Program-made: the position numbers and the translations under genes
Assembly: GCA_045590915.1 (NCBI GenBank)
Contig: JAZNRX010000227.1
Location: 1-53,219 of the forward strand
Source: Acutalibacteraceae bacterium
Lineage (GTDB): Bacteria > Bacillota > Clostridia > Oscillospirales > Acutalibacteraceae
Length of the DNA: 53,219 nucleotides
Direction of reading: 5' to 3'
The notes under the pieces: generated by a model
Seen by the model: only the letters and a program-made list of their open reading frames with translations
Databases searched by the model: none
What the model was told of the DNA's origin: nothing
Part shown: piece after piece, positions 7,412 through 53,018 of the stretch
How the letters are laid out: each line of letters begins with the position of its first letter
How positions within the stretch are numbered: position 1 is the first letter of the stretch

Positions 7412-7612
7412 GGTCGGAGTTCGGAAGTCGGAAGTAGGAGACCGAAAAACTGAACTTACCGCCATATTTTAACAAACAAAGCAAAACGAAGTTTTGCAAA
7501 ACAAGCCGTTTACGGCTTCCTTAACATTTGACAAAGTCAAATATATCACTCGTTTCAAAAAAAACGAATAACACTGCCCGCAAGGGCAATATCACTTGCA
7601 CCGACGGTGCAA
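7412..7612 (-). repeat. Composite intergenic repeat, copy A (degenerate heptad block plus six-hairpin array), reverse orientation
   Basis: Heptads are TCGGAGT TCGGAAG TCGGAAG TAGGAGA (7414-7441). Hairpins lie at 7481-7497, 7503-7518, 7527-7541, 7551-7566, 7575-7588 and 7596-7612. They are separated by TATATCACT / AATAACAC / ATATCAC, the reverse complement of GTGATAT. Confidence 0.75.
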
Positions 7613-7628
7613 ATAAAACTGTTTTTTT

Positions 7629-7873
7629 AAAAAAACAAAGAGCTTCATCCCGAAAAAACAGGATGAAGCTGATGCTCCACGGTTCCACCCGTATTGACAG
7701 ATTTACTGCCCTCTCGAAAGTCTTTAACGGGACTTATGCGGCTGACCTTATTTCAGTCGGCACTCGGGAGTGGTAGCCAATGAAAACCAACAAATAAACC
7801 GCTTTCAGCAAGCACGGTTCTCTCTGAAAAATGCCTGTTTTCAGCCTCTCCGTCAACACTTTATAATATTAAC
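7629..7873 (-). promoter_or_regulatory. T-box riboswitch leader (Thr) of thrS
   Basis: The minus strand reads AATACGGGTGGAACCGTGG (T-box sequence, + coordinates 7677-7695). Next comes the terminator AGCTTCATCC ... GGATGAAGCT (7641-7670) and a T-run. The candidate specifier is ACC, in GGCTACCACTCC (+ coordinates about 7772-7774). Confidence 0.8.
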
Positions 7874-7879
7874 AAATTC

Positions 7880-7907
7880 ATTATATACTTTTTCTGATAA
7901 AAGTCAA
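7880..7907 (-). promoter_or_regulatory. Sigma-A promoter of the thrS leader
   Basis: On the minus strand: TTGACT (7907..7902), 16 nt spacer, TATAAT (7885..7880). Confidence 0.65.
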
Positions 7908-7921
7908 GAGCTTCCCTGAAA

Positions 7922-8215
7922 TCACTGCGAAGCCTTATCAAGCCTGTAGTTTCTCACATACATTATGAGGTCAAGTCCCACCATAACGAAATTCAGACAA
8001 TAGAAAAACAGCACATACCATTTTTCCGAAAAGGAAGCCATATATGCCTCATTCATAAGCTTAGAGGCAATTCCCGCAATATATCCGAAGAATATCAGAA
8101 GAAGAAAGGGAAGACTTTTTCCCTTTGTTGTTCTTGCCTTATAGGACTTCATAACATTAAGAGGCCACGAAGCCCCGAAGGATACAATCATAAGTATTTC
8201 AAGAAATTCAGCCAT
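7922..8215 (-). CDS. Small three-TM membrane protein (PQ-loop/SemiSWEET-like guess)
   Basis: MAEFLEILMIVSFGASWPLNVMKSYKARTTKGKSLPF... with three hydrophobic helices. GGAG lies upstream of the ATG at 8215. Confidence 0.5.
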   Translation of the reverse strand: MAEFLEILMIVSFGASWPLNVMKSYKARTTKGKSLPFLLLIFFGYIAGIASKLMNEAYMASFSEKWYVLFFYCLNFVMVGLDLIMYVRNYRLDKASQ

Positions 8216-8269
8216 AAAATACACTCCGAAAAATAAATACAGAATTCACAAGGCTGCCGCCTTCACATA

Positions 8270-8827
8270 TCAGAAAACATTATGCTTTTCAACAGGAAAC
8301 GTCTGACAAACGAGATTTCTGAAATCCAGAAAATCCGCCTGTGTACGAATATTTACGTAGGGCAGAATAACCGCTCTTGCTTCTGAAAAATAGAAATAGA
8401 ACGCTGTGTTGGTTTCATAGCACACCATTACGCTGTCAAAGGAAAGCTTTTCCTCTGTTTTATCACCGAAATCCTTGATGAAACGCTTTTCGAAATCAAA
8501 GACAAGCAGACCTTCCTTGCTGTAAAGTGTATTTTCAACACTGTCCTTCTTTTTCAGACGGCGCTTCATAGTGAAAACAATAAAACGGTCACAGAAGAAA
8601 AACCACAGAACACAGAATACAGAAGAAAGAATAAGCTGTATAATAAGTAGGGTGAAATCCTTCTGATATAAAAATGTCAGAAGAGTAATCGGCAAAAGCA
8701 CAGCAGGAAAAATAAGTCGGTAATTTCTCATAGCCTTCTTTCCCGACGGTCTGTATCTTAAATAATGCTCATTAAATGCAAGATAGTCATCCGTGCTGAG
8801 CGTATAAGGAAAGCTCCATACAGGCAT
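8270..8827 (-). CDS. Hypothetical membrane protein (YcxB-like architecture: two TM helices plus a C-terminal soluble domain)
   Basis: The ATG at 8827 has SD GGAGGTG upstream. The longer ORF reaching 8899 has no SD. Confidence 0.5.
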   Translation of the reverse strand: MPVWSFPYTLSTDDYLAFNEHYLRYRPSGKKAMRNYRLIFPAVLLPITLLTFLYQKDFTLLIIQLILSSVFCVLWFFFCDRFIVFTMKRRLKKKDSVENTLYSKEGLLVFDFEKRFIKDFGDKTEEKLSFDSVMVCYETNTAFYFYFSEARAVILPYVNIRTQADFLDFRNLVCQTFPVEKHNVF

Positions 8828-8950: not shown

Positions 8951-8958
8951 ACATTCAT

Positions 8959-9035
8959 CCGCCCGTGGCGCAGTTGGATAACGCAGCAGATTCCGATTCT
9001 GAAGACCGGGGGTTCAAATCCCTCCGGGCGGGCCA
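8959..9035 (+). tRNA. tRNA-Arg (anticodon CCG)
   Basis: Hand-folded cloverleaf. Acceptor stem is CCGCCCG/CGGGCGG. The anticodon loop is TTCCGAT, with T33 and A37 flanking CCG. T arm is GGGGG-TTCAAAT-CCCTC. The CCA end is encoded. Confidence 0.9.
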
Positions 9036-9040
9036 AAAAA

Positions 9041-9070: not shown

Positions 9071-9243
9071 TATGTCCGCAGGACATAACATCGTTACGAG
9101 CAAGGCGAGTACTTCATTTGACAGTCTGCTGTCAACTTCATTGTCAATGAACCCGACATAAAACGAAGTTGCCTTACGGCAAATGAAGTGACTTTGTCAA
9201 TGAAGTGTACCTCACGGCACAATGAAGTTGCCCTTACGGGCAA
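9071..9243. repeat. Hairpin-array repeat, copy B (ATGAAGT word, divergent halves)
   Basis: Hairpins lie at 9071-9087, 9118-9135, 9169-9182 and 9228-9243. ACTTCATT occurs at 9111-9118 and CTTCATT at 9136-9142. The reverse-complement word AATGAAGT(G) occurs at about 9182-9190, 9199-9207 and 9221-9228. Confidence 0.65.
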
Positions 9244-9333
9244 ACAAAATTGATAAAATCGTTAACATTGTAATTTAATAATATATGTGATATAATCATC
9301 CCTACAAATAAGAATTTTTAGGTGTGAAAAAGA

Positions 9334-9681
9334 ATGATTAAACACATAATGACCTTAAACCCAATTCCAATGGAAAGCATTCGCAATGGATATAAAACAA
9401 TAGAATTGCGATTATATGATGACAAAAGACAAAAAATTGTTGTTGGAGATATAATAAAGTTTGTTAATGCAAAAAATACATTGGATACCTTGAATGTAGT
9501 TGTTGAAGACTTATATATTTTCGATTCTTTTGAAGAGTTGTATAAAGAATTACCGCTATTGGAATGTGGTTATACAAAAGACAATATAGATAATGCTTCT
9601 CCAAAAGATATGGAATACTATTACTCCAAAGAAAAGCAAAACAAATATGGTGTGGTAGGGATAAAAATATCGATTATTTAA
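9334..9681 (+). CDS. ASCH domain protein
   Basis: 115 aa: MTLNPIPMESIRNGYKTIELRLYDDKRQKIVVGDIIKF..., typical of an ASCH/PUA-like fold. It is visibly more AT-rich than its neighbours. SD is AGGTG. Confidence 0.7.
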   Translation: MIKHIMTLNPIPMESIRNGYKTIELRLYDDKRQKIVVGDIIKFVNAKNTLDTLNVVVEDLYIFDSFEELYKELPLLECGYTKDNIDNASPKDMEYYYSKEKQNKYGVVGIKISII

Positions 9682-9732
9682 TACACAACTTCCAATTCGT
9701 CGAGCTGTTGCTATTTTAACCTGTAAACACAG

Positions 9733-9764
9733 AAAAACCGACTTGTTTCGCCAAGTCGGTTTTT
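9733..9764 (+). terminator. Intrinsic terminator after the ASCH gene
   Basis: AAAAACCGACTTG / CAAGTCGGTTTTT form a 13-bp stem with a trailing T-run. Confidence 0.8.
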
Positions 9765-9787
9765 CAACTAAATCAACCCTTTCGGCT

Positions 9788-9943
9788 GGGTGAAATATTG
9801 CTTCGCAATGTGAAATACGAGCAATGCTCGTGTAAAATCGCTGCGGCGGTGGGTGGATTTAATTTCATATTTTGCTGTAGCAAAATATTTCACCAAAGGT
9901 GCAAACCTTTGATTTCACCGTGAGCGTAAGCGAACGATTTCAC
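9788..9943. repeat. Hairpin-array repeat, copy C (GTGAAAT word, convergent halves)
   Basis: The left half has GTGAAAT at 9790 and 9810 and GTAAAAT at 9832. The right half has AATTTCAT at 9861 and ATTTCAC at 9887, 9912 and 9937. Hairpins lie at 9797-9809, 9817-9831, 9839-9848, 9869-9886, 9894-9911 and 9919-9936. Confidence 0.75.
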
Positions 9944-10077
9944 TTAAAAATGTAGTGGTTCAAACCCATAACTCAAAATTTTAAAGGGCATCGAATTTGT
10001 GCTAAGAAATTTAGCAAATCCGTCATTTTATGCAAAAAACTGAGGTATTTTTCTATTTTCTGACACTTCTCTGCGTA

Positions 10078-13164: not shown

Positions 13165-14456
13165 GCAAGGTATACAACAGAATAGAGTCCATCACCGGCA
13201 ACGTCATAACCGTAAAAGCCGAAGGAGTAAAATATAATGAGCTGGCACTCATAAACACCCGCTTCGGAAAATCACTGGCACAGGTCAACAAAATTGACGG
13301 CGATACTGTTTCACTTCAGGTTTTTGCAGGCGGTCAGGGTGTTTCCACAGGTGACGAGGTGCGTTTTTCGGGAAACGAAATGAAAATATCCTTCAGCGAA
13401 GACTTACTCGGAAGAATTTTCAACGGCTCGGGTGAGCCAAGAGACAAGGGCCCCGCACTCACGGAAAATATGACGGCAATCGGCGGTCCCTCCGTAAATC
13501 CCACAAACCGTATTCTCGCAAACCGTATGATGAGAACAAACATCCCGATGATAGATATGTTCAACACTCTTGTTGTATCGCAGAAGCTTCCCATCTTCTC
13601 CATTTCCGGTGAGCCCTACAATCAGCTTCTTGCAAGAATTGCCCTTCAGGCTGATGCAGATGTTATAGTTCTCGGCGGCATGGGACTTAAATATGACGAC
13701 TTCCTTTACTTTAAGGAGGAGCTTTCAAACGGCGGTGCCTTAAGCAAAACGGTTATGTTCATTCACACCGCATCCGATCCCACAGTTGAATGTATGATGA
13801 TTCCCGATATGGCACTTGCAGTTGCAGAGCAGTTTGCATTACAGGACAAGGACGTGCTTGTTCTTCTGACAGATATGACAAACTTTGCGGATGCCATGAA
13901 GGAAATTGCAATTACACAAGAGCAGGTTCCCTCAAACCGAGGCTATCCGGGTGACCTCTATTCCCAGCTTGCATCCCGTTACGAAAAGGCAGTTGACTTC
14001 GCAAATTCAGGCTCCGTAACGGTTCTCGCAGTTACAACAATGCCCGGTGACGACGTAACGCATCCCGTACCTGACAATACAGGCTATATCACCGAAGGCC
14101 AGTATTATCTCAAGGGCGGACGAATTGAGCCCTTCGGCTCACTTTCACGACTCAAGCAGAATGTCAACGGAAAAACCCGTAAGGACCACCGTGCTCTTAT
14201 GGATGCTATGATCCGTATGTATTCCTCCTACAAAGAAACGCTTGAAAAGAAAAATATGGGCTTTTCAATGTCAAAATGGGACGAAAAGCTTCTGAAATAC
14301 GGTCTTCTCTTTGAAAACAAGCTTATGGACCTGTCGGTAAATCTTTCCCTTGAGGACTCGCTGGACTTAGGCTGGAGAATTCTTGCCGACTGCTTCAGCA
14401 AGGATGAAACAGGTATAAAATCAGACCTTACCGATGAATTCTGGCCCGAAGGTTAA
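13161..14456 (+). CDS. ntpB: V-type ATPase subunit B
   Basis: 431 aa, an A/B-family fold without a canonical P-loop. The start ATG overlaps the A stop (ATATGA). Confidence 0.9.
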
Positions 14457-14470: not shown

Positions 14471-15103
14471 TTGGCAAAAATCAAATTAACTAAAAATGAG
14501 TTAAAGGTACAAAAGGATGCTCTCAAAATGTACCGCAGATATTTGCCTACTCTGACACTTAAAAAACAGCAGCTTCAATCGGAAATAAGAACAATTCAGC
14601 AAAAAGCACAAGAGGTCCGAAAGGAAAAGGAGCAGCTTGAAAACGGCTTTTCCCAATGGATTGCCGTATTCAGTGAAAAGGATGCCTTTCCCGAGGGAAT
14701 TATTACCGTAAGCGGCATAAAAAAAGGCGTGGGAAACATCGCAGGTGTTGAAATCCCCACCTATGAGGGTGCCGAATTTACACGAAGCGACTATGATTTA
14801 TATTTCACTCCCCTGTGGGTTGATATAGCCGCAGACCATATGGAAAAGGCAATTTCCCTCGACCTTGAAGCAGAAGTGTTGGACGAACAGGTGAGACTTC
14901 TTGAAAAGGAGCTTACAGCCACCTCACAAAGAGTAAACCTGTTTGAAAAGGTCAAAATCCCCGAAACTCTTGAGAACATCAGAAAAATCTCGATATATAT
15001 GGCAGACCAGCAGGTCAGTGCCGTTGTACGCTCAAAAATATCAAAGCGTAAAATAGCCGCCCGTGATGAAATCCCCGCAGAAACGGAGGTCAACGCTTTA
15101 TGA
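14471..15103 (+). CDS. ntpD: V-type ATPase subunit D
   Basis: Long coiled-coil protein (KLTKNELKVQKDALKMYRRYLPTLTLKKQQL). TTG start with SD AAGGAGGA upstream. Confidence 0.85.
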   Translation: MAKIKLTKNELKVQKDALKMYRRYLPTLTLKKQQLQSEIRTIQQKAQEVRKEKEQLENGFSQWIAVFSEKDAFPEGIITVSGIKKGVGNIAGVEIPTYEGAEFTRSDYDLYFTPLWVDIAADHMEKAISLDLEAEVLDEQVRLLEKELTATSQRVNLFEKVKIPETLENIRKISIYMADQQVSAVVRSKISKRKIAARDEIPAETEVNAL

Positions 15104-17022
15104 TAGTACCTATGAAAAAAATATCGCTCATTGTGATGGGTGATAAGAAAAAGGAAACGCTGCGCATTCTTCGAAAACTGGGAATTCTTCATATAGAAAT
15201 TTCCGAGGGACACGGAGAGGAGCTTCAGCGATTAAAGGAAAAAAGGGACCTTCTTGAAGGTGCATTATTCATTCTTTCAGAAAAGAAAATCAAAAATGCA
15301 AAAAAAATAAGTGTTGATTACACCGAGGCACTGAACACTGCGAGAGAAATAATTTCTCTTGAGGAAGAAAAAAAACAGTGCTTATCACAGAAGCTGACGC
15401 TTATTTCAGAGCTTGAACGCTTAAAGGGCTGGGGAGACATAGAGCCTCTGAAAATCAGTGAGCTTAAGGAAAAGGGCATAGAGCTGCACCTTTTCGACTC
15501 TCCCGTATCGGAATATGAGGCTCTCGGTGAGGACGTTAAAACACTGTGCCTCGAAAAAACAAAGCACAGCGTGAAATTTGCACTCATCAAAGAAGAAGAT
15601 ACACCTGTTCCCGACAGCATAAAGGCATTTTGCCTCACCCTTCCCGAGATGTCTACGGCTGAAATAAAAGAAAAAATCAGACACCTTGAGGAAATTTCAG
15701 AAAATGCCGACAAAAAAATCTGTTCAATGGCAGGTACCGCTGACAGCATAAAGACTGCCGTCAACAAGCTTTTACAGGAAACACAGTTTGAAATCTTCAA
15801 CACGGGAATGGAAACTGAATATCTTTCTCCCGATGAAAGAAACGGCATATCCGTAGCATATTTCACAGGCTTTGTTGAAGAGGAAAACCTCCCGAAGCTG
15901 CAGGATGCCGCAAGGGAAAACAAATGGGGACTTGTTGTCAGCACTCCCACAGAGGAGGACGATGCTCCCACAAAGCTCAAAAACAATAAATTTGTCAGCC
16001 TCATTTATCCCCTGACAGACTTTCTGGGAACCGTACCCGGCTATTTTGAATATGACATTTCAGGCTGGTTTTTATCGTTTATTCTTATTTTCTTCGGAAT
16101 AATCTTCGGTGACGGCGGTTACGGACTTCTCATATGCTCGGTTACGGGAGCACTGATTATAAAATCCGTTGTATCAAAAAAGAGCATCTCCCCCGCATTT
16201 TTACTTGTGGGACTTTTAGGGCTTTCCACAATTCTCTGGGGAACGCTTACTTGCACATGGTTCGGTCTTTCTCCCGAGCAAATTCCCTTATGGCTTCAGA
16301 AGCTGTCAATTCCCGTAATCTCAAATGTATATGCCGACAAAATATGGTATCCCTTCTGGACAGGCGGCGAATACGGACTTACAACTGCACAGAATTTGCA
16401 GATATTCTGCTTCACGCTGGCACTTATTCAGCTGAGCGTTGCTCATATAAAGGTTGCCGTCAGAAACAGAAAATCCCTTAAAATTCTCGGTGACATCGGC
16501 TCTGTAATGCAGCTTCTGGGAATATACTATGTAGTTTTAAGCTTCGTTGTAAACGCACAGGTTTTCAGTTTCTCCCTTGTAATAGGGGGTATTCCCGTGG
16601 GTACTGCGGCTCTCATTCTTGTAGGAACAGGCTTCGTTTTAAGCTTCGTTTTCTCGAATTTCGAGGGCAGTATCATTAAATCCGTTCTGGCAAGCCTCAA
16701 AAACATCGTTTCCGTGCTTTTAGGCGTCGTAAACGTCTTCTCTGATATTGTTTCATACATTCGTCTGTGGGCGGTAGGTCTTGCAGGTGCGGCAATATCA
16801 CAGACGGTAAACGAGCTTGCAAGCCCAATGCTGGGAAAGCTGATGTTTATGATATTCGCAATAATTCTTCTTGTGTTCGGCCACGGACTGAATATGATAC
16901 TCAATGTCCTGTCGGTTATCGTTCACGGCATAAGACTGAACACACTGGAATTCTCATCCCATCTTGATATGTCCTGGAGCGGACACAAATTCACACCCTT
17001 CAAAGAACAAACTGATAAATAA
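15100..17022 (+). CDS. ntpI: V-type ATPase subunit I (a-subunit)
   Basis: 640 aa with a hydrophilic coiled N-terminal half and a multi-TM C-terminal half carrying the conserved Arg segment SYIRLWAVGLAG. Confidence 0.9.
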   Translation: MIVPMKKISLIVMGDKKKETLRILRKLGILHIEISEGHGEELQRLKEKRDLLEGALFILSEKKIKNAKKISVDYTEALNTAREIISLEEEKKQCLSQKLTLISELERLKGWGDIEPLKISELKEKGIELHLFDSPVSEYEALGEDVKTLCLEKTKHSVKFALIKEEDTPVPDSIKAFCLTLPEMSTAEIKEKIRHLEEISENADKKICSMAGTADSIKTAVNKLLQETQFEIFNTGMETEYLSPDERNGISVAYFTGFVEEENLPKLQDAARENKWGLVVSTPTEEDDAPTKLKNNKFVSLIYPLTDFLGTVPGYFEYDISGWFLSFILIFFGIIFGDGGYGLLICSVTGALIIKSVVSKKSISPAFLLVGLLGLSTILWGTLTCTWFGLSPEQIPLWLQKLSIPVISNVYADKIWYPFWTGGEYGLTTAQNLQIFCFTLALIQLSVAHIKVAVRNRKSLKILGDIGSVMQLLGIYYVVLSFVVNAQVFSFSLVIGGIPVGTAALILVGTGFVLSFVFSNFEGSIIKSVLASLKNIVSVLLGVVNVFSDIVSYIRLWAVGLAGAAISQTVNELASPMLGKLMFMIFAIILLVFGHGLNMILNVLSVIVHGIRLNTLEFSSHLDMSWSGHKFTPFKEQTDK

Positions 17023-17034
17023 AGGAGAATAGTT

Positions 17035-17460
17035 ATGAATTTAGGATTATTAGCAACAGCACTGGCAATGGGCATTGCCGCAACAGGCTCTGCAATCGGA
17101 ATCGGAATTGCAGGTCAGGCATCAATCGGAGCATGGAAAAAATGCTATATGAACAACAAGGCGGCTCCCTTCATTCTCACCGTTTTTGCAGGTGCCCCCC
17201 TCACACAGACCATTTACGGCTTCCTTCTTATGCAGCAGATGAAGTCCTCAAGTGCAGATCCCTCCTTCCTTTTCGGACTGGGAATTGCATCAGGTCTTGC
17301 CATGGCAGTTTCCGCTTACGTACAGGGTAAAGCAGGTGCCGCAGGTGCAGATGCTCTTGCAGAAACAGGAAAAGGCTTTTCACAGTACATCACAGTTGTC
17401 GGTCTTTGCGAAACAGTTGCCCTTTTCGCCCTCGTTTTCAGCATGGTTGCTCTCGGCTGA
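17035..17460 (+). CDS. ntpK: V-type ATPase proteolipid subunit K
   Basis: 141 aa, a four-TM duplicated c-type subunit with a carboxylate in the last helix (GLCETVALFALV). Confidence 0.9.
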   Translation: MNLGLLATALAMGIAATGSAIGIGIAGQASIGAWKKCYMNNKAAPFILTVFAGAPLTQTIYGFLLMQQMKSSSADPSFLFGLGIASGLAMAVSAYVQGKAGAAGADALAETGKGFSQYITVVGLCETVALFALVFSMVALG

Positions 17461-17521
17461 TTTATCCGACAAAAAAACACTTCTTCTGCGTTATGCAGAA
17501 AAAGCATTTCTGGTGAAATAT

Positions 17522-17560
17522 ACGGTGCAGCAGATTACTGTTGCACCGTGTTTTCGTTTT
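17522..17560 (+). terminator. V-ATPase operon terminator, embedded in a short copy of the hairpin-array repeat
   Basis: ACGGTGCA (17522-17529) pairs with TGCACCGT (17542-17549), then GTTTTCGTTTT. It is preceded by GGTGAAATA (17512-17520) and by the hairpin TTCTGC-gttat-GCAGAA (17482-17498). Confidence 0.75.
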
Positions 17561-21615: not shown

Positions 21616-22539
21616 TTAGTAAACGAAGTTATAGAACTTGCAGTAGTTCCACATATGACCGGACTTGTTTTCAATCTTACCAACGATAAGCTTTGCATAA
21701 CCGATAATAATATCAACATCAGCTGTGTGGTCGATGGAAACGAACTGTCCGTCGGGAGTCATAACAGCTTCAATCTTATAGCCCTTGTAGATAACATGAA
21801 TGTCACTGAAATCTGTGAGAACCTTGTTAACAGTGCTGTCATTTCTGAGTGTATTTTCAATATCTTCCCAGTAAAGAAGAGCACCTGTAACCTGTCCAAG
21901 AACGGAGCCTTCCTTCTTGGGTGTGTCTTCATCCTGCATGATGATTGTGATTTTGTAGTTTGAGCCGTCAGCTACGCATGTTGCAGACTTAACTTTGGAA
22001 AGGTCTGTAAGTGTCCATGCTGCAATTCTTCTCATTGCATCCTCTGAGCCCTTTTCGTTAACCTGCTCTGAAGCCTGATCTTCTGTTGTCATGAAGTTAC
22101 CGAGAACACTTGTAACGATGTTGTTGATTGTTGAACCGCCGACATTAACAGCGTCAACATTCTGCCATTCCTTCTTTGTGTAACCAACCTTGCCTGCCTT
22201 GATGTCATCTACACCCTTCTTGTAGAAAGCTGTGATTTCAGCAGTTGTAGCGGGCATCTTGTTGCCTGCGGGAGCAGCAGTTGTTGCTTCACCTGAGGGA
22301 GCAGCTGTTGTTGTCTCTGTTGAGGGAGTCTGCTGAGGAGCAGCTGTTGTCTGCTCGGGAGCGGGTGTCTGTGTCTGAGCACCTGTCGAAACCTGACCGC
22401 CTACAAGACCGCTGATGTCGATGTCGTTACCGTCTTTGTCAACAAAGCGAACGTGAATTTCCTGTGTGCAAGAAGCAAAAGCAAAAAGCATGCTTGCAAC
22501 AAGAGCAAGAGCAATTACTCTGAAAACATTTTTCTTCAT
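21616..22539 (-). CDS. Lipoprotein of unknown function (paralogue 1)
   Basis: Lipobox FASC, a T/A/P-rich linker, and a roughly 200-aa domain ending ...KFYNFVY. Shares blocks with the 22696..23601 product. Confidence 0.7.
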   Translation of the reverse strand: MKKNVFRVIALALVASMLFAFASCTQEIHVRFVDKDGNDIDISGLVGGQVSTGAQTQTPAPEQTTAAPQQTPSTETTTAAPSGEATTAAPAGNKMPATTAEITAFYKKGVDDIKAGKVGYTKKEWQNVDAVNVGGSTINNIVTSVLGNFMTTEDQASEQVNEKGSEDAMRRIAAWTLTDLSKVKSATCVADGSNYKITIIMQDEDTPKKEGSVLGQVTGALLYWEDIENTLRNDSTVNKVLTDFSDIHVIYKGYKIEAVMTPDGQFVSIDHTADVDIIIGYAKLIVGKIENKSGHMWNYCKFYNFVY

Positions 22540-28517: not shown

Positions 28518-28546
28518 TTTAAAGGAGTACCGTTAAATTATGAGTT
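28509..28546 (+). other. 13-bp perfect inverted repeat spanning the stop codon of the radical SAM gene
   Basis: AACTCATAATTTA (28509-28521) pairs with TAAATTATGAGTT (28534-28546), with a 12-nt loop AAGGAGTACCGT. No T-run follows. Confidence 0.6.
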
Positions 28547-28780
28547 AATGATATTTCTGCTTCGCAGAAGTGATATTGCCCTTCGGGCAGTGCATTATGA
28601 GCAACACGAATAACAAGGTTGTGACGGAGTCAGGTACTTATATTCTTTGCTATGCAAAGAGTGATATATTTTCCTGCGGAAAATGTGAAGCATTTGCATC
28701 GAACTTTCTCCGACTTCCGACCTTGCAAAGCACTGTTTTCTCCGAATTCCGAAATCCGAAATCCGAATTTGCAAAGCACT
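28547..28780 (+). repeat. Composite intergenic repeat, copy D (hairpin array plus two heptad blocks), forward orientation
   Basis: AATGATAT, GTGATAT, AGTGATATA and TGTGAAG alternate with hairpins at 28555-28569, 28577-28589, 28645-28659 and 28669-28683. Next come TCTCCGACTTCCGACC (28707-28722) and TCTCCGAATTCCGAAATCCGAAATCCGAATT (28739-28769). Each block is followed by TTGCAAAGCACT. Confidence 0.75.
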
Positions 28781-33596: not shown

Positions 33597-34105
33597 AATT
33601 CGGAATTCGGAATTCGGAGGTTAATTAAACTTTTACTTCCCCCAAAATCTAAATCTATTTCCGCCCGTTTGTGCTTTCATTTTTTGTTCAGTTTATTTTT
33701 CTGAGTTTTGGTTATAGCAACAAGCATTTTTATTAACTCGTCACAATCCTTATAAATGCTGTCAAACTGTTCCTTTGTTATGTACTCACTTTCATACAAC
33801 AATTCCAACCAATAAGCACTTTCATCTGCTTCTTTCAACGAAACAGTAAGCTTCATATAAAAATCTGCATCAGTCTGAACCCTTGTACTTTCCCGGATAT
33901 TAGCACCAATACTTGTCCCCGAATGCAACAGCTGATTTGAAAGCACAAACTCCTTCTTTTCCGAGCACAGATATTTATTCAGCTTTATAATTCGCAAAGC
34001 AAAAGCCTTTGACTTATCACAAAGAATATTACACCTCAAAATATTCTCCTTCTAAACAGCTATAGCCGCTATTCATATTGTATCTTTTTCTCCGAAATCC
34101 GAATT
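33597..34105. mobile_element. 509-bp cassette bounded by inverted heptad blocks, carrying the four-helix-bundle gene (candidate non-autonomous element)
   Basis: The left end is AATTCGG x3 plus AGG (33597-33620). The right end is TCTCCGAAATCCGAATT (34089-34105). The innermost 17 nt match as inverted repeats at 15 of 17 positions. The cassette fills the whole intergenic gap and abuts the stop codon of the M42 peptidase gene. Confidence 0.55.
33677..34039 (-). CDS. Four-helix-bundle protein (23S rRNA intervening-sequence protein / Avd-like family)
   Basis: 120 aa: ...SNQLLHSGTSIGANIRES ... EADESAYWLELL, characteristic of this family. TTG start with AGGAG 6 nt upstream. AT-rich relative to the flanks. 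Confidence 0.75.
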   Translation of the reverse strand: MRCNILCDKSKAFALRIIKLNKYLCSEKKEFVLSNQLLHSGTSIGANIRESTRVQTDADFYMKLTVSLKEADESAYWLELLYESEYITKEQFDSIYKDCDELIKMLVAITKTQKNKLNKK

Positions 34106-35143
34106 TCAGATTGCGAAACCTGTGAGCAATCTGATTGTGTTTTCGACTCCGTCGATGTGGCTTCTTTCATAGCCGTGGGAGGAATATACGCCGGGACCTA
34201 TGAGTCCGTGGCGGAAATCATGTCCGGCACGAAGAGTGGCCTCTGCATCGCTTCCGTAATGAGGATAAATGTCAACTGCATAAGCTGCACCGGTTTTTTC
34301 CGCAGCCTCAATAAGCCTTGATGTCATATCATAGTTATATGGGCCTCCGGAATCCTTGGCACATATCGAAACCTGCTTTTCGGTGCAGATAAGTCCGTCT
34401 CCGACACAGCCCATATCAACGGAAAGCACTTCCGTTATCCCCTCAAAGGGAACTGCGGCAGCTCCGTGCCCGACTTCTTCATAAACCGTTATATGCAGAT
34501 ATATCTTTCTTTCGGGTGAAAGCTTTTCATCCTTCAGAAGCTTCGCAAAGCCTAAAATTGCCGCAACACTCAGCTTATCATCAAGAAAACGGCTTTTTAT
34601 ATAACCCGATTCCGTAACGACAGTTCTCGTATCAAAGGCAACAATATCGCCGTTTCCGATACCGAGTGCTTTCACATCATCCGCATTTTTCACATCCTCG
34701 TCAAGCACAACCTCCATATTATCAAAGCTGCGGTCGGTTTTGTTAAATTCGCCGTTGACATGGATTGAGGGATTTTTGAGAAGAAATGTGCCGTCATATA
34801 TACCGTTTTTTCTTGTTATGACACGGCAGTTTTCGCCCTCTGTATTAAAGCCGTTAAGTCCGCCGAGAGGTGTGATTCTCAGTCTGCCGTTACTCTTAAC
34901 CTCGGCAACCATTCCGCCGAGTGTATCAAGATGTGCTTCCAGAAGGAGTGCATTTTTTTCATCTTTTCCGCCGATTTCCACGGCAACTCCGCCTTTTTCA
35001 GTGATAAAAGCGGGACAGCCGACAGAAATAAACTCATTTCTGACAAATTCCGCCGCCGCTGAAGTGTATCCCGTCGGGGAATCGATCTTTAATATTTCAA
35101 CTGCTTTCTGAGTTGCAAATTCTGCATACTTTTTATACATCAT
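34106..35143 (-). CDS. M42-family metallo-aminopeptidase (FrvX/CelM-like)
   Basis: 345 aa with metal-ligand segments EAHLDTLG, FLDDKLSVA, YEEVGHGAA and SVDMG. Confidence 0.8.
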   Translation of the reverse strand: MMYKKYAEFATQKAVEILKIDSPTGYTSAAAEFVRNEFISVGCPAFITEKGGVAVEIGGKDEKNALLLEAHLDTLGGMVAEVKSNGRLRITPLGGLNGFNTEGENCRVITRKNGIYDGTFLLKNPSIHVNGEFNKTDRSFDNMEVVLDEDVKNADDVKALGIGNGDIVAFDTRTVVTESGYIKSRFLDDKLSVAAILGFAKLLKDEKLSPERKIYLHITVYEEVGHGAAAVPFEGITEVLSVDMGCVGDGLICTEKQVSICAKDSGGPYNYDMTSRLIEAAEKTGAAYAVDIYPHYGSDAEATLRAGHDFRHGLIGPGVYSSHGYERSHIDGVENTIRLLTGFAI

Positions 35144-35294
35144 ACATCACCAGAATAATACTATCACAAAATTTGTATAAATAAAAGACTTTCTACAAAA
35201 AAATAGAGATCATAATTTTATAAAAATAATTGAATTAATATTTTCATTATGTTATTATATTTATAACTATATTTGTGCGTAAGGAGTTTTTTTT

Positions 35295-37769
35295 ATGAAA
35301 CTTTTGGACAAGGCAAAAAATATTGTTTCAGACATTTTCACCTATTGGGACAAACCGGCTGCAGGCAAATATGTGCCGTATAAAGGCATTTTCGGCTATT
35401 CTGTAGGCGGCATCGGTGCTTATTTGATCATAACACTCGGCACCGCGTGTCTGCTCTCTGCAAACAACACCCTTCTTACAATGACACTGGGTGTAAAGCC
35501 CACCCATGTCTACATAATGTATGTCATCTGCGTTCTTGCAAACATTCCGCTTACGGGAATAAGAGCAAACATAATAGACAACACCCGTAACAAAGCAGGT
35601 AAATACCGTCCGTATATTCTCACCATGGCTGTGCCTTCCGCACTTCTCTGTCTTGCCATGGTATGGATTCCTTACGGCAAATTCTCGGAAATTCCTTTCC
35701 TTCAGGGCGAGATTTTCGGCCAGACAAAAGCTTATGTTCTTAAATGTGCCATCATTTTTGTTATAAATCTGCTTTTACATTTCTTCTACTATTTCTTCTA
35801 CGATGCATATGAAAATCTCATCCATGTTCTCTCCCCCGATTCACAGGAAAGAGCCAATGTGCAGTCAGTAAAGAGCGTTGTATATTCCTTTGCTCCCACG
35901 GTTGTTAACCTGCTCACTCCCCTCATAGCAGGAAATATTTTCCACACAAACACAACCGACATCCGTGTTTACAGACTTTTATATCCCATTCTGACCGTGC
36001 TCGGACTTCTTCTTTGCATCCTTGTTTATAAGAATACAGAAGAAAAAATCGTTCAGGCGAGAACACACGTTGTTCAGATCAAATTCATTGACGCTTTAAG
36101 AGCTGTTGCAAAAAACAAATATTTCTGGGTAATCTCCCTTGCCGGCTGGATAGGCTTTCTTGAAGCATCCTATGCAAACATTCTCTCATGGCTTTATAAC
36201 TACGGCGGTGCCTGTAACAGTAATGAATATGCCCTTATTGTTACGGTTTACGGAAATGCATCACTCTGGGGCATGATAATGGCTCCCTTTGCAATCAAAA
36301 AATGGGGCAAAAAGGCTGTGCTTATCGTAACAAACCTTTTCAATGTTCTCTTCATTCTCATGATGCTTCCCTGCTGTCAGGAAATTTCCCATATGACCAT
36401 ATGGCTTGTTATGGGATGTCTGTGGCTCAATGCCCTTATGGGATCTTTCGCACACATTCTCAACCCCGCAATCCAGGCTGATATCCGCGACTATCAGCAG
36501 TATAAGACCGGCGAAAGAATTGACGGTATGTTCTCTGCAGTTGCAACAATCGGCACGGTTATCACCCTTGCAACCTCAAGCGTTCTTCCCATAGTTTATG
36601 AAAAGAGCGGACTTACAGAAACAAATGCTCTTAAAATCACCTCCGATCCGAGTATTCTCGGAAGAATGCTCGGCGACGGAAAAACTGTCGGCGAAATCCT
36701 TGCGGACCAGCTTGCAAAAGGTCAGGATAACTATTCCAATGCAACCTCTGCTCTTTATGATACTAATATCCTTCTCAACCTTCTCCAGATTCTTATCATT
36801 CTCGCAGCAGTCGGTGCATTTATGAATGTTATTCCTTTCTTCTGGTATGACTTCAATGAAATCAAGCAGAAATCCGTTGTCCGTGTTCTTAAGGTCAGAG
36901 CAATGTTTGAAGATTTCGGAAACAATGTGACAAATGACACAGGACTTGTTGACGGTATCGAAATCATAAGAAACTCCCGCAAAAACTGCAGTCTTGAGCC
37001 TGCAGCCCTCGACAAAAAGAGCTATCGCTCAATAAAAGACAAGGCAGAAAAGAAGGCAGCAAAAAAAGCCTATAATGAAGCAAAAGAATTCAATAAAGAA
37101 ATTGAAATTGCAAAATTCGTGTGCGAAGAGCTTGACCATTTCAATTCCCGTGTCGGAAAATTCCGTCTGTCACAGGCAAAAGAGCTTTACGCTATGGGAA
37201 TAAATGCAATTCTCACAATGAATAAAACCAACATAAAAGAGGAGCTCAGGGCAGCAAAGCTTATGCCGTCTTCTTCAAAGGAAGAAAAGGAAATGAGAAA
37301 AGCTGCCATTGAAAATGCAAAGAAAAAGCTCACTGCAATATCCTCCGTAAAGAAATATTTCAAAAACACCACTGAGCTTGTTCAGCCCGATTTCGCAGAG
37401 CTTGACCGCCTCTACGACAGAGAGGATGCCATAAACCTTGAAATGAAGGAGCTTTATGTCAGCCTTGATGCCGCAAAGAAATTGAAGAATGCAGCAGAGA
37501 ATGCAGAGCTTTCACAGAAAATTGCATCTCTCAAGGCAGAAAAGAAGGATATTCAGGCTGCAATAAAGGACGAAATGAACCGTCACGCATACTTCAACCG
37601 CGCCGCAAAGCCCTATGTTGATGCCGAAAAGCTGATAAAGCAGGCAGAAAACTACACTCACCTTAATGAGATTGAAGACTCATATGAGGAAGCACTTCTC
37701 CGCGTAAATGAAGCCAAGGCTTTACAGGAGGAGGAAGAACTCAGAGAAAAAGCGGCAAAAGGCAAATAA
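35295..37769 (+). CDS. MFS/GPH-type transporter fused to a roughly 300-aa C-terminal K/E/A-rich coiled-coil domain
   Basis: 824 aa. Roughly the first 520 aa hold about 12 hydrophobic helices. From about residue 530 the sequence is hydrophilic and heptad-like (KKAAKKAYNEAKEFNKEIEIAK..., ...AENAELSQKIASLKAEKKDIQAAIKDE...). SD is AAGGAG. Confidence 0.7.
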   Translation: MKLLDKAKNIVSDIFTYWDKPAAGKYVPYKGIFGYSVGGIGAYLIITLGTACLLSANNTLLTMTLGVKPTHVYIMYVICVLANIPLTGIRANIIDNTRNKAGKYRPYILTMAVPSALLCLAMVWIPYGKFSEIPFLQGEIFGQTKAYVLKCAIIFVINLLLHFFYYFFYDAYENLIHVLSPDSQERANVQSVKSVVYSFAPTVVNLLTPLIAGNIFHTNTTDIRVYRLLYPILTVLGLLLCILVYKNTEEKIVQARTHVVQIKFIDALRAVAKNKYFWVISLAGWIGFLEASYANILSWLYNYGGACNSNEYALIVTVYGNASLWGMIMAPFAIKKWGKKAVLIVTNLFNVLFILMMLPCCQEISHMTIWLVMGCLWLNALMGSFAHILNPAIQADIRDYQQYKTGERIDGMFSAVATIGTVITLATSSVLPIVYEKSGLTETNALKITSDPSILGRMLGDGKTVGEILADQLAKGQDNYSNATSALYDTNILLNLLQILIILAAVGAFMNVIPFFWYDFNEIKQKSVVRVLKVRAMFEDFGNNVTNDTGLVDGIEIIRNSRKNCSLEPAALDKKSYRSIKDKAEKKAAKKAYNEAKEFNKEIEIAKFVCEELDHFNSRVGKFRLSQAKELYAMGINAILTMNKTNIKEELRAAKLMPSSSKEEKEMRKAAIENAKKKLTAISSVKKYFKNTTELVQPDFAELDRLYDREDAINLEMKELYVSLDAAKKLKNAAENAELSQKIASLKAEKKDIQAAIKDEMNRHAYFNRAAKPYVDAEKLIKQAENYTHLNEIEDSYEEALLRVNEAKALQEEEELREKAAKGK

Positions 37770-42850: not shown

Positions 42851-42989
42851 AATTCGGAATTCGGAATTCGGATTTCGGAGAAACAATCAGCTTCAGTTTG
42901 TACTTCAAACTATTTAATTATTTATCATTAACAAAACACGACACTTAAAGTTTTCATATCTCCGAATTCCGAACTCCGAATTCCGAATT
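42851..42989. mobile_element. 139-bp MITE-like element with 31-nt heptad-repeat terminal inverted repeats, between nadB and nadC
   Basis: The left arm is AATTCGGAATTCGGAATTCGGATTTCGGAGA (42851-42881). The right arm is TCTCCGAATTCCGAACTCCGAATTCCGAATT (42959-42989). The arms are complementary at 29 of 31 positions and enclose a 77-bp AT-rich core. Confidence 0.7.
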
Positions 42990-50856: not shown

Positions 50857-50930
50857 TTTAACTTCTCCTTAAAACAAAAAGGGAGCCGAATTTTCAGCTC
50901 CCTCTCTCAAAGTCTTTTACAAACAACTAA

Positions 50931-51590
50931 TTAAGCAGCTGTTGTTTCTTCTACAGTTTCTTCTTCTGCAACAGTTTCGTCAGCAGCTGTTTCTGCATCG
51001 GGATCAAATGCTGCGGGGCCGTCAAGCTCGTCGCCTGCGATGTCGCCGCCTTCTACTTCGCCTTCGCCTTCAGCCTCGGGCTGTTCGAAGGAAAGAGGAG
51101 CCATGATGAAGAATACGAAGTTGCCTTCTGTAGCTGTGAGCATTTCTTCAGCAGCTGTGCAGATGTTCCAACGAAGGTTTGCATTGTCCTTAAGAGTTGT
51201 AACGAAAGCGTCTGCGTCTGCATCAGCAGCAAGCTCGAATACATAGCTTACGAAGGGGATTGTGCCGATCATGGGCATGAAAGCTGTACAAGCAGCGAAG
51301 CCTGTGATGTCAGCATCAAAGCCTGCAAGATAGCCTGCTTCCATATCCTGAACCATGGGCATAAATGCTACTGTTTCGTTTGTTGAAAGAGCAGTTGCGA
51401 TTGTGTTTGCTGTTGCGCCTTCTTTTACAGCTTCAGCCTTGAAAGCTTCAACAAATGTTGCAGCAACTGTCATTTCGCCGGCAGTTGTTTCTTCAAGAGT
51501 TGTTGTTTCGTCGTTGTTACCTGTTGTTGCACATGCAACAAGACCGATAACTACAATAAGAGCGAGTACGATTGCGATAACTTTTTTCAT
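50931..51590 (-). CDS. Acidic lipoprotein of unknown function
   Basis: Lipobox LVAC and a very acidic C-terminal tail (EAEGEGEVEGGDIAGDELDG...). Confidence 0.65.
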   Translation of the reverse strand: MKKVIAIVLALIVVIGLVACATTGNNDETTTLEETTAGEMTVAATFVEAFKAEAVKEGATANTIATALSTNETVAFMPMVQDMEAGYLAGFDADITGFAACTAFMPMIGTIPFVSYVFELAADADADAFVTTLKDNANLRWNICTAAEEMLTATEGNFVFFIMAPLSFEQPEAEGEGEVEGGDIAGDELDGPAAFDPDAETAADETVAEEETVEETTAA

Positions 51591-51666
51591 TTTGGTTTTC
51601 TCCTTTTGGATATGTTTTTTTGTTTTTATATATTGAAAATCACCCTGAGTGAGTAATTTACATATA

Positions 51667-52233
51667 TCAGCTCAATGTGTCCGTAAAGCAGGCTGTCCAC
51701 TGTGATACGTCATTGTCATAGTAAAGCTTTACATAATGGAAGCCGTTTTTATCCTTGAGTGTGATTAAATAGCTGAAGCTTGGATCAGGCACGGGTACCA
51801 CCCACTTGCATTTCAGCTCACCTGAAAAAACGCCCGTTTTGTTATTGTCTGCAAGGATTTCACCGTTTTCGGAATAAAGAGTACCCCAGCTTGTGAAAAC
51901 CTCTGTCTCGGTTCTGAGATTGATTGTCAGGTCACACATAATTTCATTGCCAAGTCTTGCAAGCATCAGTGACTCGGACTGTGCCTGTGTGATGTGAACC
52001 TCTTCGGTAAGCCTTTCGGCACCCACATACACCTCGGGAGTCTTATCCGAATTCATAAAGAAAAATCCCGCAACAAGAATGACAGCGATTGCCGCGGCAA
52101 GTGAGCCTATTCTTCTGAACTGAACAAGCTTTCCGCTTTTTACTTCTGTTTCGTCGGCGTTCACTATTCTGTCATAAAGTTCTTCGGGTGCTTTTATATT
52201 CAGATATTCTTCTCTGAACCTACTGTCAGACAT
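51667..52233 (-). CDS. Putative anti-sigma factor (single-pass membrane protein)
   Basis: The start ATG (52233) overlaps the sigma-factor stop (ATGTCTGA). It has a short cytoplasmic N-terminus, one TM helix (SLAAAIAVILVAGFFF) and an extracytoplasmic domain. Confidence 0.6.
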   Translation of the reverse strand: MSDSRFREEYLNIKAPEELYDRIVNADETEVKSGKLVQFRRIGSLAAAIAVILVAGFFFMNSDKTPEVYVGAERLTEEVHITQAQSESLMLARLGNEIMCDLTINLRTETEVFTSWGTLYSENGEILADNNKTGVFSGELKCKWVVPVPDPSFSYLITLKDKNGFHYVKLYYDNDVSQWTACFTDTLS

Positions 52234-52786
52234 TGAACTCCTCCTTTTCCAAAAGTAATTTAAGTGCATCTCTGCCTCTGGATAATCTCATTTTCACTGC
52301 AGAGGCTGAAATTTTCAGCGACCTTGCAATACTGTCAATGCTCATATCCTCGAGGTAGTGAAGAACAATAACGGTTCTGATTTTCTCGGGAAGCTTTTCT
52401 ATCTCATCAAGAATTCCCGTGCTGTCATCAGAAAAATGATCTCTGTAAACAAGCTTTTCGGCAGTCGAAATATCCTCATGGGAGCGAATGGCATTCTTAC
52501 GGTAAATATCGTGACACTGATTGACTGTTGCCCGTATAAACCAAGCCTTTTCGTGCTCGTCAGATAAGAATATTGTTTTTTTCTTTATATATTTCAGAAA
52601 CACATCCTGAACGGCATCCATCGCATCATCGGGATTACGAAGCTGCATCAGAGCAATTCTGTAAAGCATATCCGAATAGCGTAAATAAACCGCAGATATA
52701 TCAGTTTCCGCCTTTGAAGACCAACCCAACTGACTGCCTCCTATCTGTAATACGTTTGAGAAAACAAAAAAGTCACACAAAGTCAA
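52226..52786 (-). CDS. ECF-type sigma-70 family RNA polymerase sigma factor
   Basis: Region 2 is DAMDAVQDVFLKY..WFIRATVNQCHD. The region 4 HTH is MSIDSIARSLKISASAVKMRLSRGR. The likely true start is TTG at 52729, with AGGAGG 7 nt upstream, rather than ATG at 52786. Confidence 0.8.
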   Translation of the reverse strand: MTLCDFFVFSNVLQIGGSQLGWSSKAETDISAVYLRYSDMLYRIALMQLRNPDDAMDAVQDVFLKYIKKKTIFLSDEHEKAWFIRATVNQCHDIYRKNAIRSHEDISTAEKLVYRDHFSDDSTGILDEIEKLPEKIRTVIVLHYLEDMSIDSIARSLKISASAVKMRLSRGRDALKLLLEKEEFNV

Positions 52787-52809
52787 AAAAAATTCTGATT
52801 TTTTTTGAC

Positions 52810-53018
52810 AATGATATTCATAGCTTCGCTATGAGTGAAATTCATTCCTACGGAATGAGTGAAATTCTTTGCAATACAAAGAATGATATATTTTCCTGAG
52901 GAAAATATGAAGGAAGGCGTAAACGCCTTGTTCCGCTCCGCTCTAAAACACTCGTACCTTCGTTACATTGCTGAAATTTGATTGCATTTGTGTAGACCTG
53001 TCTCCGAATTCCGAATTC
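52810..53018 (+). repeat. Composite intergenic repeat, copy F (five exactly 24-nt-phased word-plus-hairpin units, then a heptad block), forward orientation
   Basis: Units start at 52810, 52834, 52858, 52882 and 52906. The words are AATGATATT, AGTGAAATT, AGTGAAATT, AATGATATA and TATGAAGG. Hairpins lie at 52819-52833, 52843-52857, 52867-52881, 52891-52905 and 52914-52929. The heptad block is TCTCCGAATTCCGAATTC (53001-53018). Confidence 0.8.

Follow-up and report, generated by a model that had tools for sequence, protein, structure and literature searches.

The stretch of DNA analysed here (the window) comprises 53,219 nt of an Acutalibacteraceae bacterium (GCA_045590915.1, contig JAZNRX010000227.1), whose encoded proteins, some of them dockerin-bearing, have their closest relatives in Acutalibacteraceae or Clostridia metagenome-assembled genomes (MAGs). 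Exact-match look-ups of its ThrRS, NadC and ASCH-domain proteins gave no entry. Scattered among its genes are repeats of two kinds: arrays of short hairpins with variable stems (module 1) and tandem runs of a 7-nt unit of the type TCCGAAN (module 2). An earlier note had taken the two together for one undescribed composite element present in at least eight copies, all strictly intergenic. We find that module 1 is the Gut-1 RNA motif, that Gut-1 arrays and heptad runs are two independent repeat classes, and that one pair of heptad runs encloses a gene. The eight sites are lettered A (7412-7621), B (9071-9243), C (9765-9945), D (17482-17560), E (28548-28769), F (33597-34105), G (42851-42989) and H (52811-53018), and comparison loci from other genomes or metagenomes carry L-numbers (e.g. 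L246, L382). In a strict scan of the window, units made up of an RTGAWRT linker, a hairpin and a second linker were found 8 times where 0.06 were expected in shuffled sequence, and the heptad word TCCGAANTCCGA, allowing at most one mismatch, was matched 18 times against 1.03 expected, a count that none of 100 shuffles reached. The window thus does contain the non-random, structured and dispersed repeats that had been described, and their hairpin pairing is indeed retained while the stem sequence varies from unit to unit. Also in agreement with the earlier description, the open reading frames (ORFs) scanned in the window encode no transposase, recombinase or Y1/HUH domain.

Module 1, with its variable hairpins and GTGAAAT-type linker, is the Rfam family RF01706 (Gut-1 RNA motif). 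An Rfam scan matched five arms in the window with E values from 1.7e-10 to 9.7e-4; two of them (9765-9843 and 52809-52894) pass the gathering score of 50 bits, and the other three score 37-46 bits at E <= 1e-3. In the RF01706 consensus, helices of free sequence carry constant A-U and U-G closing pairs, and only GAA is left unpaired in GUGAAAU. The window arrays have the same closing pairs and GAA junction, and their hairpins, as read and folded, have perfect 4-8 bp stems with RTGAWRT words between them. For module 2, Rfam returned chance hits of the miRNA type only. As both modules belong to known kinds, the claim of an undescribed composite family does not hold. A match to a catalogued family with a known function had been named as what would overturn that claim; Gut-1 is catalogued, with its function unknown.

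Copy C is a canonical Gut-1 element. Its left arm (9765-9843, plus strand; 64 bits, E = 1.7e-10) begins about 30 nt past the terminator of an ASCH-domain gene, and an inverted right arm (9857-9945, minus strand; 40 bits, E = 1.9e-4) shows linkers that read ATTTCAC on the plus strand. The word at the 5' end of the element, AACTAAATCAACCC, resembles TAAATCCACCC, which in related elements is complementary to a central GGGTGGATTTA. The whole element is 75.6% identical to one that follows a tRNA in an unrelated gene context (L231), and the inverted-arm layout is found there as well as in L208, L168, L155, L215, L238 and L382. Copy H (module 1 at 52811-52929, plus strand) has five hairpins joined by the linkers ATGATAT, GTGAAAT, GTGAAAT, ATGATAT and ATGAAGG, and matches RF01706 over 52809-52894 (51.3 bits, E = 2.8e-7). 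Copy E (module 1 at 28548-28693, plus strand) consists of two hairpins, a 50-nt gap and two further hairpins that it has in common with copy H; its match spans 28530-28601 (37.3 bits, E = 9.7e-4). Copy A (module 1 at 7481-7621, minus strand) folds into six perfect hairpins with GTGATAT/GTGTTAT linkers and matches over 7538-7621 (46.4 bits, E = 4.8e-6). Alignment of A, E and H revealed a homologous core of TCTTTGC..GCAAAGA, RTGATAT, ATTTTCC..GGAAAAT, RTGAAGG and AAGSCGTAAACGSCTT.

Copy B is, by sequence and fold, a divergent array (9071-9243) with the reverse-complement linker ACTTCAT on the left and ATGAAGT on the right. It follows the terminator of a tRNA-Arg gene (8959-9035), and its plus arm (9161-9233) reaches just 18.6 bits for RF01706. 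Between copies B and C lies the ASCH-domain gene (9334-9681, in the region 9268-9766), which has its own promoter-like site and terminator, is missing from the tRNA-Arg to V-ATPase spacer of the relative L382, and has the appearance of a small inserted gene between two hairpin-array elements. The list of eight copies has to be shortened by one: repeats are present at the other coordinates, but the plus-strand copy D (17482-17560) amounts to two hairpins, one of them the terminator of the V-ATPase operon, plus a single GGTGAAAT word, and we do not regard it as a member. Searched alone, this segment gave no Gut-1 match at E <= 10; at the same position L382 has a full Gut-1 element.

The heptads of module 2 were located by Tandem Repeats Finder as period-7 arrays starting at 7413, 28741, 33597, 42851, 42961 and 53003. 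In copy A, the block at 7412-7441 (minus strand; TCTCCTA CTTCCGA CTTCCGA ACTCCGA CC) ends 10-20 nt ahead of the ribosome-binding site and ATG (7391) of thrS. Copy E has two plus-strand blocks, TCTCCGACTTCCGACC at 28707-28722 and TCTCCGA ATTCCGA AATCCGA AATCCGA AT at 28739-28769, each then followed by TTGCAAAGCAC, and the second ends about 10 nt from the stop codon of a minus-strand 2-oxoacid dehydrogenase gene. The block of copy H (53001-53018, plus strand; TCTCCGA ATTCCGA ATTC) lies about 70 nt upstream of a probable plus-strand start codon at 53089. The heptads had been said always to end in TCTCCGA on the inner side; TCTCC is present in 7 of 8 blocks, and the block at 33597-33620 has CCTCC.

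Copies F and G have no hairpin module and are both inverted pairs of heptad runs. Copy G (42851-42989, plus strand) is an ORF-less hairpin element between nadB and nadC, with arms at 42851-42881 and 42959-42989 and an 81-nt interior; it folds into a 30-bp stem with two mismatches (-50.9 kcal/mol, z = -10.1). At the orthologous site L241 has a different interior, and L242 is empty (spacer of 79 nt). Copy F is larger and not strictly intergenic, since it holds a 120-aa gene (33677-34039, minus strand) with its own Shine-Dalgarno sequence. The encoded four-helix-bundle protein belongs to the 23S rRNA intervening-sequence (IVS) protein family S23p (PF05635, E = 1.3e-27; TIGR02436, E = 4.3e-31; PDB 2rld_A, E = 1.3e-37), a family that also includes Avd. 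Read on the transcript strand (minus), the 5' arm (34089-34105; AAATTCGGATTTCGGAGA) abuts the TGA stop of an M42 peptidase gene, and the 3' arm (33597-33620; CCTCCGA ATTCCGA ATTCCGA ATT) ends 22 nt before the start codon of an RlmL-like methyltransferase gene and is conserved in L241, L242 and L243 with four heptads. Heptad number varies between orthologs: for the left arm of copy F it is 2 in the window and 4 in L241 and L242. In both the minimum free energy and the centroid folds of the 523-nt segment 33590-34112 (minus strand; z = -3.5), the arms close the whole ORF. More generally, paired heptad blocks fold into a duplex of 17-30 bp. The site of copy F is a junction between two protein genes, the peptidase and the methyltransferase genes, and not a 23S rRNA helix; Rfam found no rRNA in the window.

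The leader of thrS separates the two modules most directly. A T-box leader (RF00230) occupies 7656-7865 on the minus strand, scoring 63.3 bits (E = 1.8e-11), which is below the Rfam gathering score of 93; its ortholog in L246 scores 92.2 bits. The T-box terminator is directly 5' of the Gut-1 array of copy A, which lies in the thrS 5' leader between that terminator and the heptads. A repeat inserted between a T-box terminator and a start codon would be transcribed only after antitermination. In L247, whose threonyl-tRNA synthetase (ThrRS) is 83% identical, the T-box terminator leads straight to the ribosome-binding site. In L246, with a ThrRS 95% identical, the heptads and a spacer shared with the window are present and the hairpins are not. 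In the window, about 180 nt of Gut-1 hairpins stand between the terminator T-tract and the L246-shared spacer. Two words border the insertion, CTTTGTTTTTTT past the T-box terminator and CTTTGTTTGTT behind the last hairpin (7567-7641 and 7470-7497, minus strand); they may be a target duplication or just a second terminator-like tail.

The same separation is seen elsewhere: 26 metagenomic Gut-1 loci have no heptad run nearby, and heptads occur without Gut-1 in six other Clostridia MAG loci that were scanned. The view of a single element type is thus not sustained. The spacer between hairpins and heptads is not shared by copies A and H either, and that of A is common to the hairpin-less L246. The order and orientation of the two modules do agree among copies A, E and H, but a composite unit is not needed to account for this because each module has its own placement rule: Gut-1 is sense-oriented downstream of a gene or terminator, and TCCGAAN, likewise in sense orientation, comes shortly before the start codon of the following gene. 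L242, which is from a related species, has another repeat in its intergenic regions, about 120 nt long (GATTATATGTCCC..GGGAAGTAAACTTCCC..GATGGACT..CGAAAACG..GCCGTTTTCTTG), at 1-293, 13903-14206, 14870-15183, 16117-16268 and 17010-17488, one of these positions being the site of copy E in the window. Elsewhere in the window, the ORF at 21616-22539 contains 27- and 39-nt tandem repeats (22265-22371) and encodes a repetitive protein without a Pfam or NCBIfam match.

Gut-1 arrays from other sources, which come from gut or rumen Clostridia of the Acutalibacteraceae-like clade, show how these elements are built. About 26 genuine Gut-1 loci are present among the 120 metagenomic pattern matches listed, the rest being mostly unrelated tandem repeats. 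In a viral collection, only 3 of the 120 matches listed are Gut-1-like arrays (L289, L311, L359), and there is thus no sign of a phage vector. The canonical order is a gene or tRNA, an intrinsic terminator 26-37 nt upstream of the element, the sequence CAAC(G/T)AAAT..AATCC(ACCC), three or four hairpins with GTGAAAT linkers, a centre GTGGGTGGATTTA(A/T)TTTCA and an inverted arm with ATTTCAC linkers, the 5' word being complementary to the centre; copy C matches this layout exactly. For single arms, the upstream gene is co-oriented in 10 cases versus 2. Among 121 units, GTGAAAT (52) and GTGATAT (45) are the main linkers, and there are 79 distinct stems, 19 of which recur in at least two loci. The variable stems (n = 91) contain 495 Watson-Crick pairs, no G-T pair and two A-C pairs. 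The constant closing pair of most units, on the other hand, is a U-G wobble, an RNA-type feature.

Comparison with L382 gives a picture of rapid turnover. This locus is 85% identical to the window in DNA over the V-ATPase operon, yet its Gut-1 elements are different. After the tRNA-Arg gene, L382 has a GTGATAT-type element and an ATGTAAT-type array, while the window has an ATGAAGT-type array, the extra ASCH gene and a GTGAAAT-type element; after the V-ATPase operon, L382 has a full Gut-1 element and the window a terminator only. Two paralogous elements within L382 conserve hairpins 1, 2, 5 and 7, while hairpins 3, 4 and 6 are replaced by unrelated hairpins with the linkers unchanged. No RF01706 match at E <= 0.01 was found in 58 kb of three syntenic or related loci. 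Gut-1 elements therefore undergo duplication, insertion polymorphism and module exchange. Presence/absence polymorphism between relatives, which the earlier note had proposed as a check, was found both for Gut-1 and for copy G. One array of L382 (1085-1290), whose linkers read ATGTAAT in the left part and ATTACAT in the right, has the Gut-1 architecture and goes undetected by RF01706, which indicates that the Rfam model covers part of a wider family.

Gut-1 was originally described as a motif of unknown function from 43 examples, rated 'RNA: Y' and classed as a probable non-coding RNA (ncRNA) (Weinberg et al. 2010, Genome Biol 11:R31; PMC2864571), and our literature search found no later work on it. 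The published motif and the window arrays agree in having at least three short variable hairpins, A-U/U-G closure and GAA in GUGAAAU. The published account gives it as a single ncRNA motif of the 'human gut only', without function or context (PMC2864571), whereas the arrays described here are multi-copy, of variable length, often with inverted arms, located beside terminators, and subject to module swapping and insertion polymorphism, with the linker variants GTGATAT, ATGAAGT and ATGTAAT beyond the published one. This repeat-like, terminator-associated and mosaic nature and the linker variants are new with respect to the literature searched.

The heptad runs extend well beyond the Clostridia. 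A collection scan (one genome per species, three TCCGAAN units) yielded at least 119 loci, among them Verrucomicrobiota, Acidobacteriota, Bacteroidales, Planctomycetota, Cyanobacteria, Myxococcota-type MAGs and several Clostridia. Many of the listed loci have 4-13 units, and their flanks often hold related or other heptad runs (GCGGATT, GGAATGC, GGGGAGT and others). For 132 blocks, the stop codon of an opposite-strand gene was found within 30 nt of the 3' end of the block in 34 cases versus 10 in the mirror control, and a same-strand start codon at most 30 nt downstream in 10 versus 4. Along the transcript, a stop codon comes first, then (NTTCGGA)n, an interior, (TCCGAAN)n and the start codon of the next gene. 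The window obeys this grammar at thrS, the methyltransferase gene and nadC, and also where the genes for the peptidase and the 2-oxoacid dehydrogenase have their stop codons. Among the 119 listed loci, heptad arrays form 68 inverted pairings, in which one array can be counted several times; most have interiors of 20-150 nt.

The TCCGAAN runs belong to the bacterial heptanucleotide-repeat class: tandem 7-nt units are in excess over chance in non-coding DNA, and copy number differs between related genomes. The short tandemly repeated repetitive (STRR) sequences of cyanobacteria belong to it too. Heptanucleotide units are the most abundant long simple repeats in prokaryotes according to Mrazek 2007, as cited in PMC4679880. 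A further member, the TAACTGA repeat, has been described from Beggiatoaceae, Cyanobacteria and Bacteroidetes, where it directly precedes start codons and has no known function (PMC4679880). Like TCCGAAN, it consists of tandem 7-nt units in 2-6 or more copies, is intergenic, often stands before start codons and is patchy across phyla; apart from the unit itself, it differs in that 169 direct sets and only one indirect repeat were reported (PMC4679880), whereas inverted pairing is frequent for TCCGAAN.

The armed layout of copy F is not confined to the window. It is present in the syntenic loci L241-L243 and in L019 (from a Mucilaginibacter MAG), L092, L248 and L252; Spirochaetales, Synergistaceae and Bacteroidota are among the carriers. 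Homologs 65-84% identical to the window protein, with TCCGAAT/TCCGCAT arms, are encoded in L241-L243, in Spirochaetales (between smpB and ssrA) and in the Synergistaceae MAG. Ten ORFs among the listed heptad loci match the four-helix-bundle profile, and most of these are flanked by inverted heptad arrays. The arm heptads differ by locus (TCCGAAA, GACGAAT, CAGCGAC, GGCCTCA); heptad type matches protein similarity in a suggestive way, with phylogeny as a confounder. In other phyla, arms of the types CAGCGAC, GACGAAT and GGCCTCA were noted at L009 2750-3700, L050 1600-2600, L092 660-1330 and L035 4960-5480, and L092 has two four-helix-bundle paralogs with different arm types in one genome. The inverted tandem-heptad arms around S23p-family genes outside rRNA, seen in several phyla, are new with respect to the literature searched, in which no paper was found to join heptamer repeats with IVSs or four-helix-bundle proteins.

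The known relatives of copy F are the IVSs of 23S rRNA. That of Coxiella is 428-444 nt long, and has a 28-bp terminal stem and an S23p ORF; RNase III excises it, and the suspicion that it is mobile is an old one (PMC4990558). Copy F (about 510 nt) resembles the IVSs with S23p ORFs of Leptospira and Coxiella (PMC4990558) in that terminal inverted repeats close a stem around a gene of about 120 aa of the PF05635/TIGR02436 family. It differs in lying between protein genes and not in helix 25 or 45 of 23S rRNA, in having tandem-heptad arms and in the existence of gene-less versions (copy G). Miniature inverted-repeat transposable elements (MITEs) are defined by terminal inverted repeats, a target-site duplication and kinship with an autonomous transposon that encodes a transposase. 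Of the elements here, the arms are inverted, the empty site in L242 shows no clear duplication, and the only gene-carrying version encodes a four-helix-bundle protein and no known transposase.

Several further observations concern these genes and their arms. In L242 and L243, a unit of about 185 nt, in which the four-helix-bundle gene's 3' end is joined through a spacer to the right heptad arm, is tandemly amplified, with 4-5 copies in L242 (10364-10994) and 2 in L243 (1587-1857), which is another sample of the L242 species; a similar duplication lies next to ssrA in a Spirochaetales MAG (L248 1830-2080 versus L251 690-800). This tandem amplification points to recurrent unequal recombination at the arm. 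In L254-L261 (JGI contigs), an armless homolog, 68-78% identical to armed ones, lies between genes for a SNF2-family helicase and an N6/N4 DNA methyltransferase with start and stop codons overlapping its neighbours; this arrangement occurs on 22 contigs and may be a defence-type operon. A Logan contig 99.9% identical to window positions 33597-36853 (L120) ends exactly at the 33597 heptad arm, and many four-helix-bundle homologs are on very short contigs. The heptad arms appear to break short-read assemblies.

We favour a picture of two independently placed kinds of repeat, Gut-1 mosaic arrays on the one hand and heptad runs with IVS-like cassettes on the other, and put its probability at roughly 55%. 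According to this picture, Gut-1 elements are non-coding, non-autonomous, multi-copy mosaics of a left arm, a centre and an inverted right arm, each unit being a perfect stem of 4-8 bp with a T-N-C-biased loop and a 7-nt RTGAWRT linker to the next. They multiply inside a genome, swap entire hairpin modules at the linkers, turn over fast between related species, and settle in sense orientation just downstream of an intrinsic terminator or gene end. There they would be transcribed as the tail of read-through transcripts or as part of a leader, and the stacked hairpins could serve as neutral-to-useful 3' or 5' structure modules by analogy with two known groups, the repetitive extragenic palindromic (REP) sequences with their bacterial interspersed mosaic elements (BIMEs) in enterobacteria and the BOX elements of pneumococci. 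As passengers, they would be copied in trans by some other activity. REP/BIME and BOX sequences are short, non-coding, mosaic intergenic repeats with linker motifs and with palindromes that alternate in orientation and are conserved in sequence; they encode no transposase and share the transcripts of adjacent genes. In Gut-1, by contrast, the linker is constant and the palindrome free, there is no sequence similarity, and we found no REP-associated tyrosine transposase (RAYT) among the window ORFs scanned. As for the heptads, the duplex might act, by analogy with the IVSs, as a processing stem of the RNase III type that lets an insert sit between cistrons, the arms and the four-helix-bundle gene may move together as a cassette, and solo blocks would sit in leaders near the ribosome-binding site.

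A number of observations weigh against this picture. A terminator is detectable upstream of only 14 of 40 GTGAWAT clusters (about a third), and one subfamily (L124, L130, L199, L200) has none upstream. The lack of G-U among 498 variable stem pairs is unusual for an RNA under structural selection and fits DNA-level palindromes or a generating mechanism. No enzyme that could copy either module was found in the window ORFs or the flanks of the 26 Gut-1 loci, where clustering of ORFs around the arrays gave no recurrent family. A duplex does not require arms with a 7-nt period, a feature for which the picture has no explanation, and a close four-helix-bundle homolog (P0077) has no arms.

The alternative with the best standing, which we nonetheless consider unlikely, is that Gut-1 arrays are trans-acting ncRNAs, for example a multivalent sponge that presents GAA/GUGAAAU junctions to an RNA-binding protein or to the 3' end of 16S rRNA, the copies then being a selected gene family. 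The constant U-G/A-U closing pairs and GAA junction of the Rfam consensus argue for such a role, as do the loop bias, the sense-orientation bias and the original 'RNA: Y' rating. The variation at linker positions 1 and 6 is limited to purines, which preserves pairing only if G-U counts, and specific hairpins are conserved between distant metagenomic loci. But the arrays, placed immediately behind terminators or within a leader, have no consistent promoter of their own, are missing at orthologous sites in close relatives, and are mosaic, with variable arm number and hairpin content. The absence of G-U pairs from the variable stems does not fit either, and an inverted second arm offers the complementary linker and would mask the first.

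For the heptads, the competing view is that they are functionless, slippage-prone simple repeats, with the inverted pairs and the adjacency to four-helix-bundle genes as by-products and the solo blocks as, at most, unstructured leaders that aid ribosome loading. The abundance of heptanucleotides among prokaryotic simple repeats in the account cited above, the variation in heptad number between orthologs and samples, and the similar position of TAACTGA repeats before start codons all agree with this view. We consider it improbable in the face of the same TCCGAAN unit in many phyla with a consistent stop/start grammar, the matched inverted arm sets around similar cargo genes in at least four phyla, and the conservation of the thrS-leader block between species.

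A further reading makes Gut-1 elements non-autonomous retroelements, or elements of another kind with recognition of the terminator stem-loop; they would insert after terminators in one orientation, and their RNA, as the transposition intermediate, would be constrained in structure. We consider this very improbable. Bacterial class C group II introns do insert after intrinsic terminators, and Gut-1 is like them in its sense-oriented position directly downstream of terminators, although we regard this as a working likeness only: Gut-1 lacks intron RNA domains and a reverse transcriptase and is far smaller. Junctions directly after terminator T-tracts, with a T-box terminator that predates the insertion, the sense-orientation bias of 10:2, the direct repeat CTTTGTTT(T/G)TT that flanks the thrS insertion and the RNA-type constant wobble pairs are all as expected on this view. 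Against it, the surroundings contain neither a reverse transcriptase nor an intron-like sequence, many arrays have no upstream terminator, the thrS flanking repeat may be a mere second terminator tail, and the mosaic replacement of hairpins is not accounted for. Recognition of REP sequences depends on a conserved palindrome and a 5' tetranucleotide, and the conserved word of Gut-1 is a linker between hairpins and not part of a conserved palindrome. Least probable of all is the earlier proposal of one composite REP/REPIN-like element that moves in single-stranded form through a Y1 HUH transposase (a RAYT or one of the IS200/IS605 type) with its gene in another part of the genome. This proposal would explain dispersed copies in both orientations, inverted arms, perfect palindromes, insertion polymorphism and the order and orientation common to A, E and H, but is contradicted by modules that occur separately, Gut-1 stems that are not conserved, the lack of a GTAG-like 5' word, and window ORFs and array flanks in which neither a Y1 RAYT gene nor any protein family recurring near the arrays of the 26 loci was found.

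Other known systems were considered and rejected. In a CRISPR-like array the logic would be reversed, with a constant 7-nt 'spacer' and a variable hairpin, and there are no cas genes. The GTTRRRY core of integron attC sites resembles GTGAAAT, but in attC inverse cores flank one long imperfect palindrome, and the cassettes lie between sites. The RNA arrays of type III toxin-antitoxin systems are exact tandem repeats beside a toxin gene, and a K-turn or box C/D-like linker would have GA dinucleotides adjoining helices, which is not the case here. A Rex or CRP half-site in the linker was likewise dropped. The idea that the heptad strand with GGA serves as a CsrA sponge was also dropped; CsrA is not known from several of the heptad-carrying phyla.

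The heptad-armed S23p genes are the most interesting lead. In a broader reading, which is speculative and probably claims too much, S23p genes would move between phyla as cassettes bounded by inverted heptads, and the IVSs of rRNA would be the special case of cassettes that landed in rRNA. Paired, gene-less and solo heptad arrays would all be cis sites, for example bound unit by unit by the pentameric protein or cut as duplex RNA. They would make up a new mobile or RNA-processing class without a recognisable transposase, next to Gut-1 as a second, terminator-seeking class in the same genomes. On the practical side, both kinds of repeat appear to break assemblies. Gut-1, an orphan 'sRNA' (small RNA) in Rfam since 2010, is now placed in Acutalibacteraceae-like gut Clostridia, and its nature as a dispersed mosaic repeat shifts the sensible experiments towards repeat biology and away from a single small RNA gene. 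The heptad arms connect the IVSs of 23S rRNA, numerous four-helix-bundle genes and the unexplained excess of heptanucleotides in bacteria; if this connection holds, a defined protein and a defined 7-nt site would allow the origin and mobility of IVSs to be tested.

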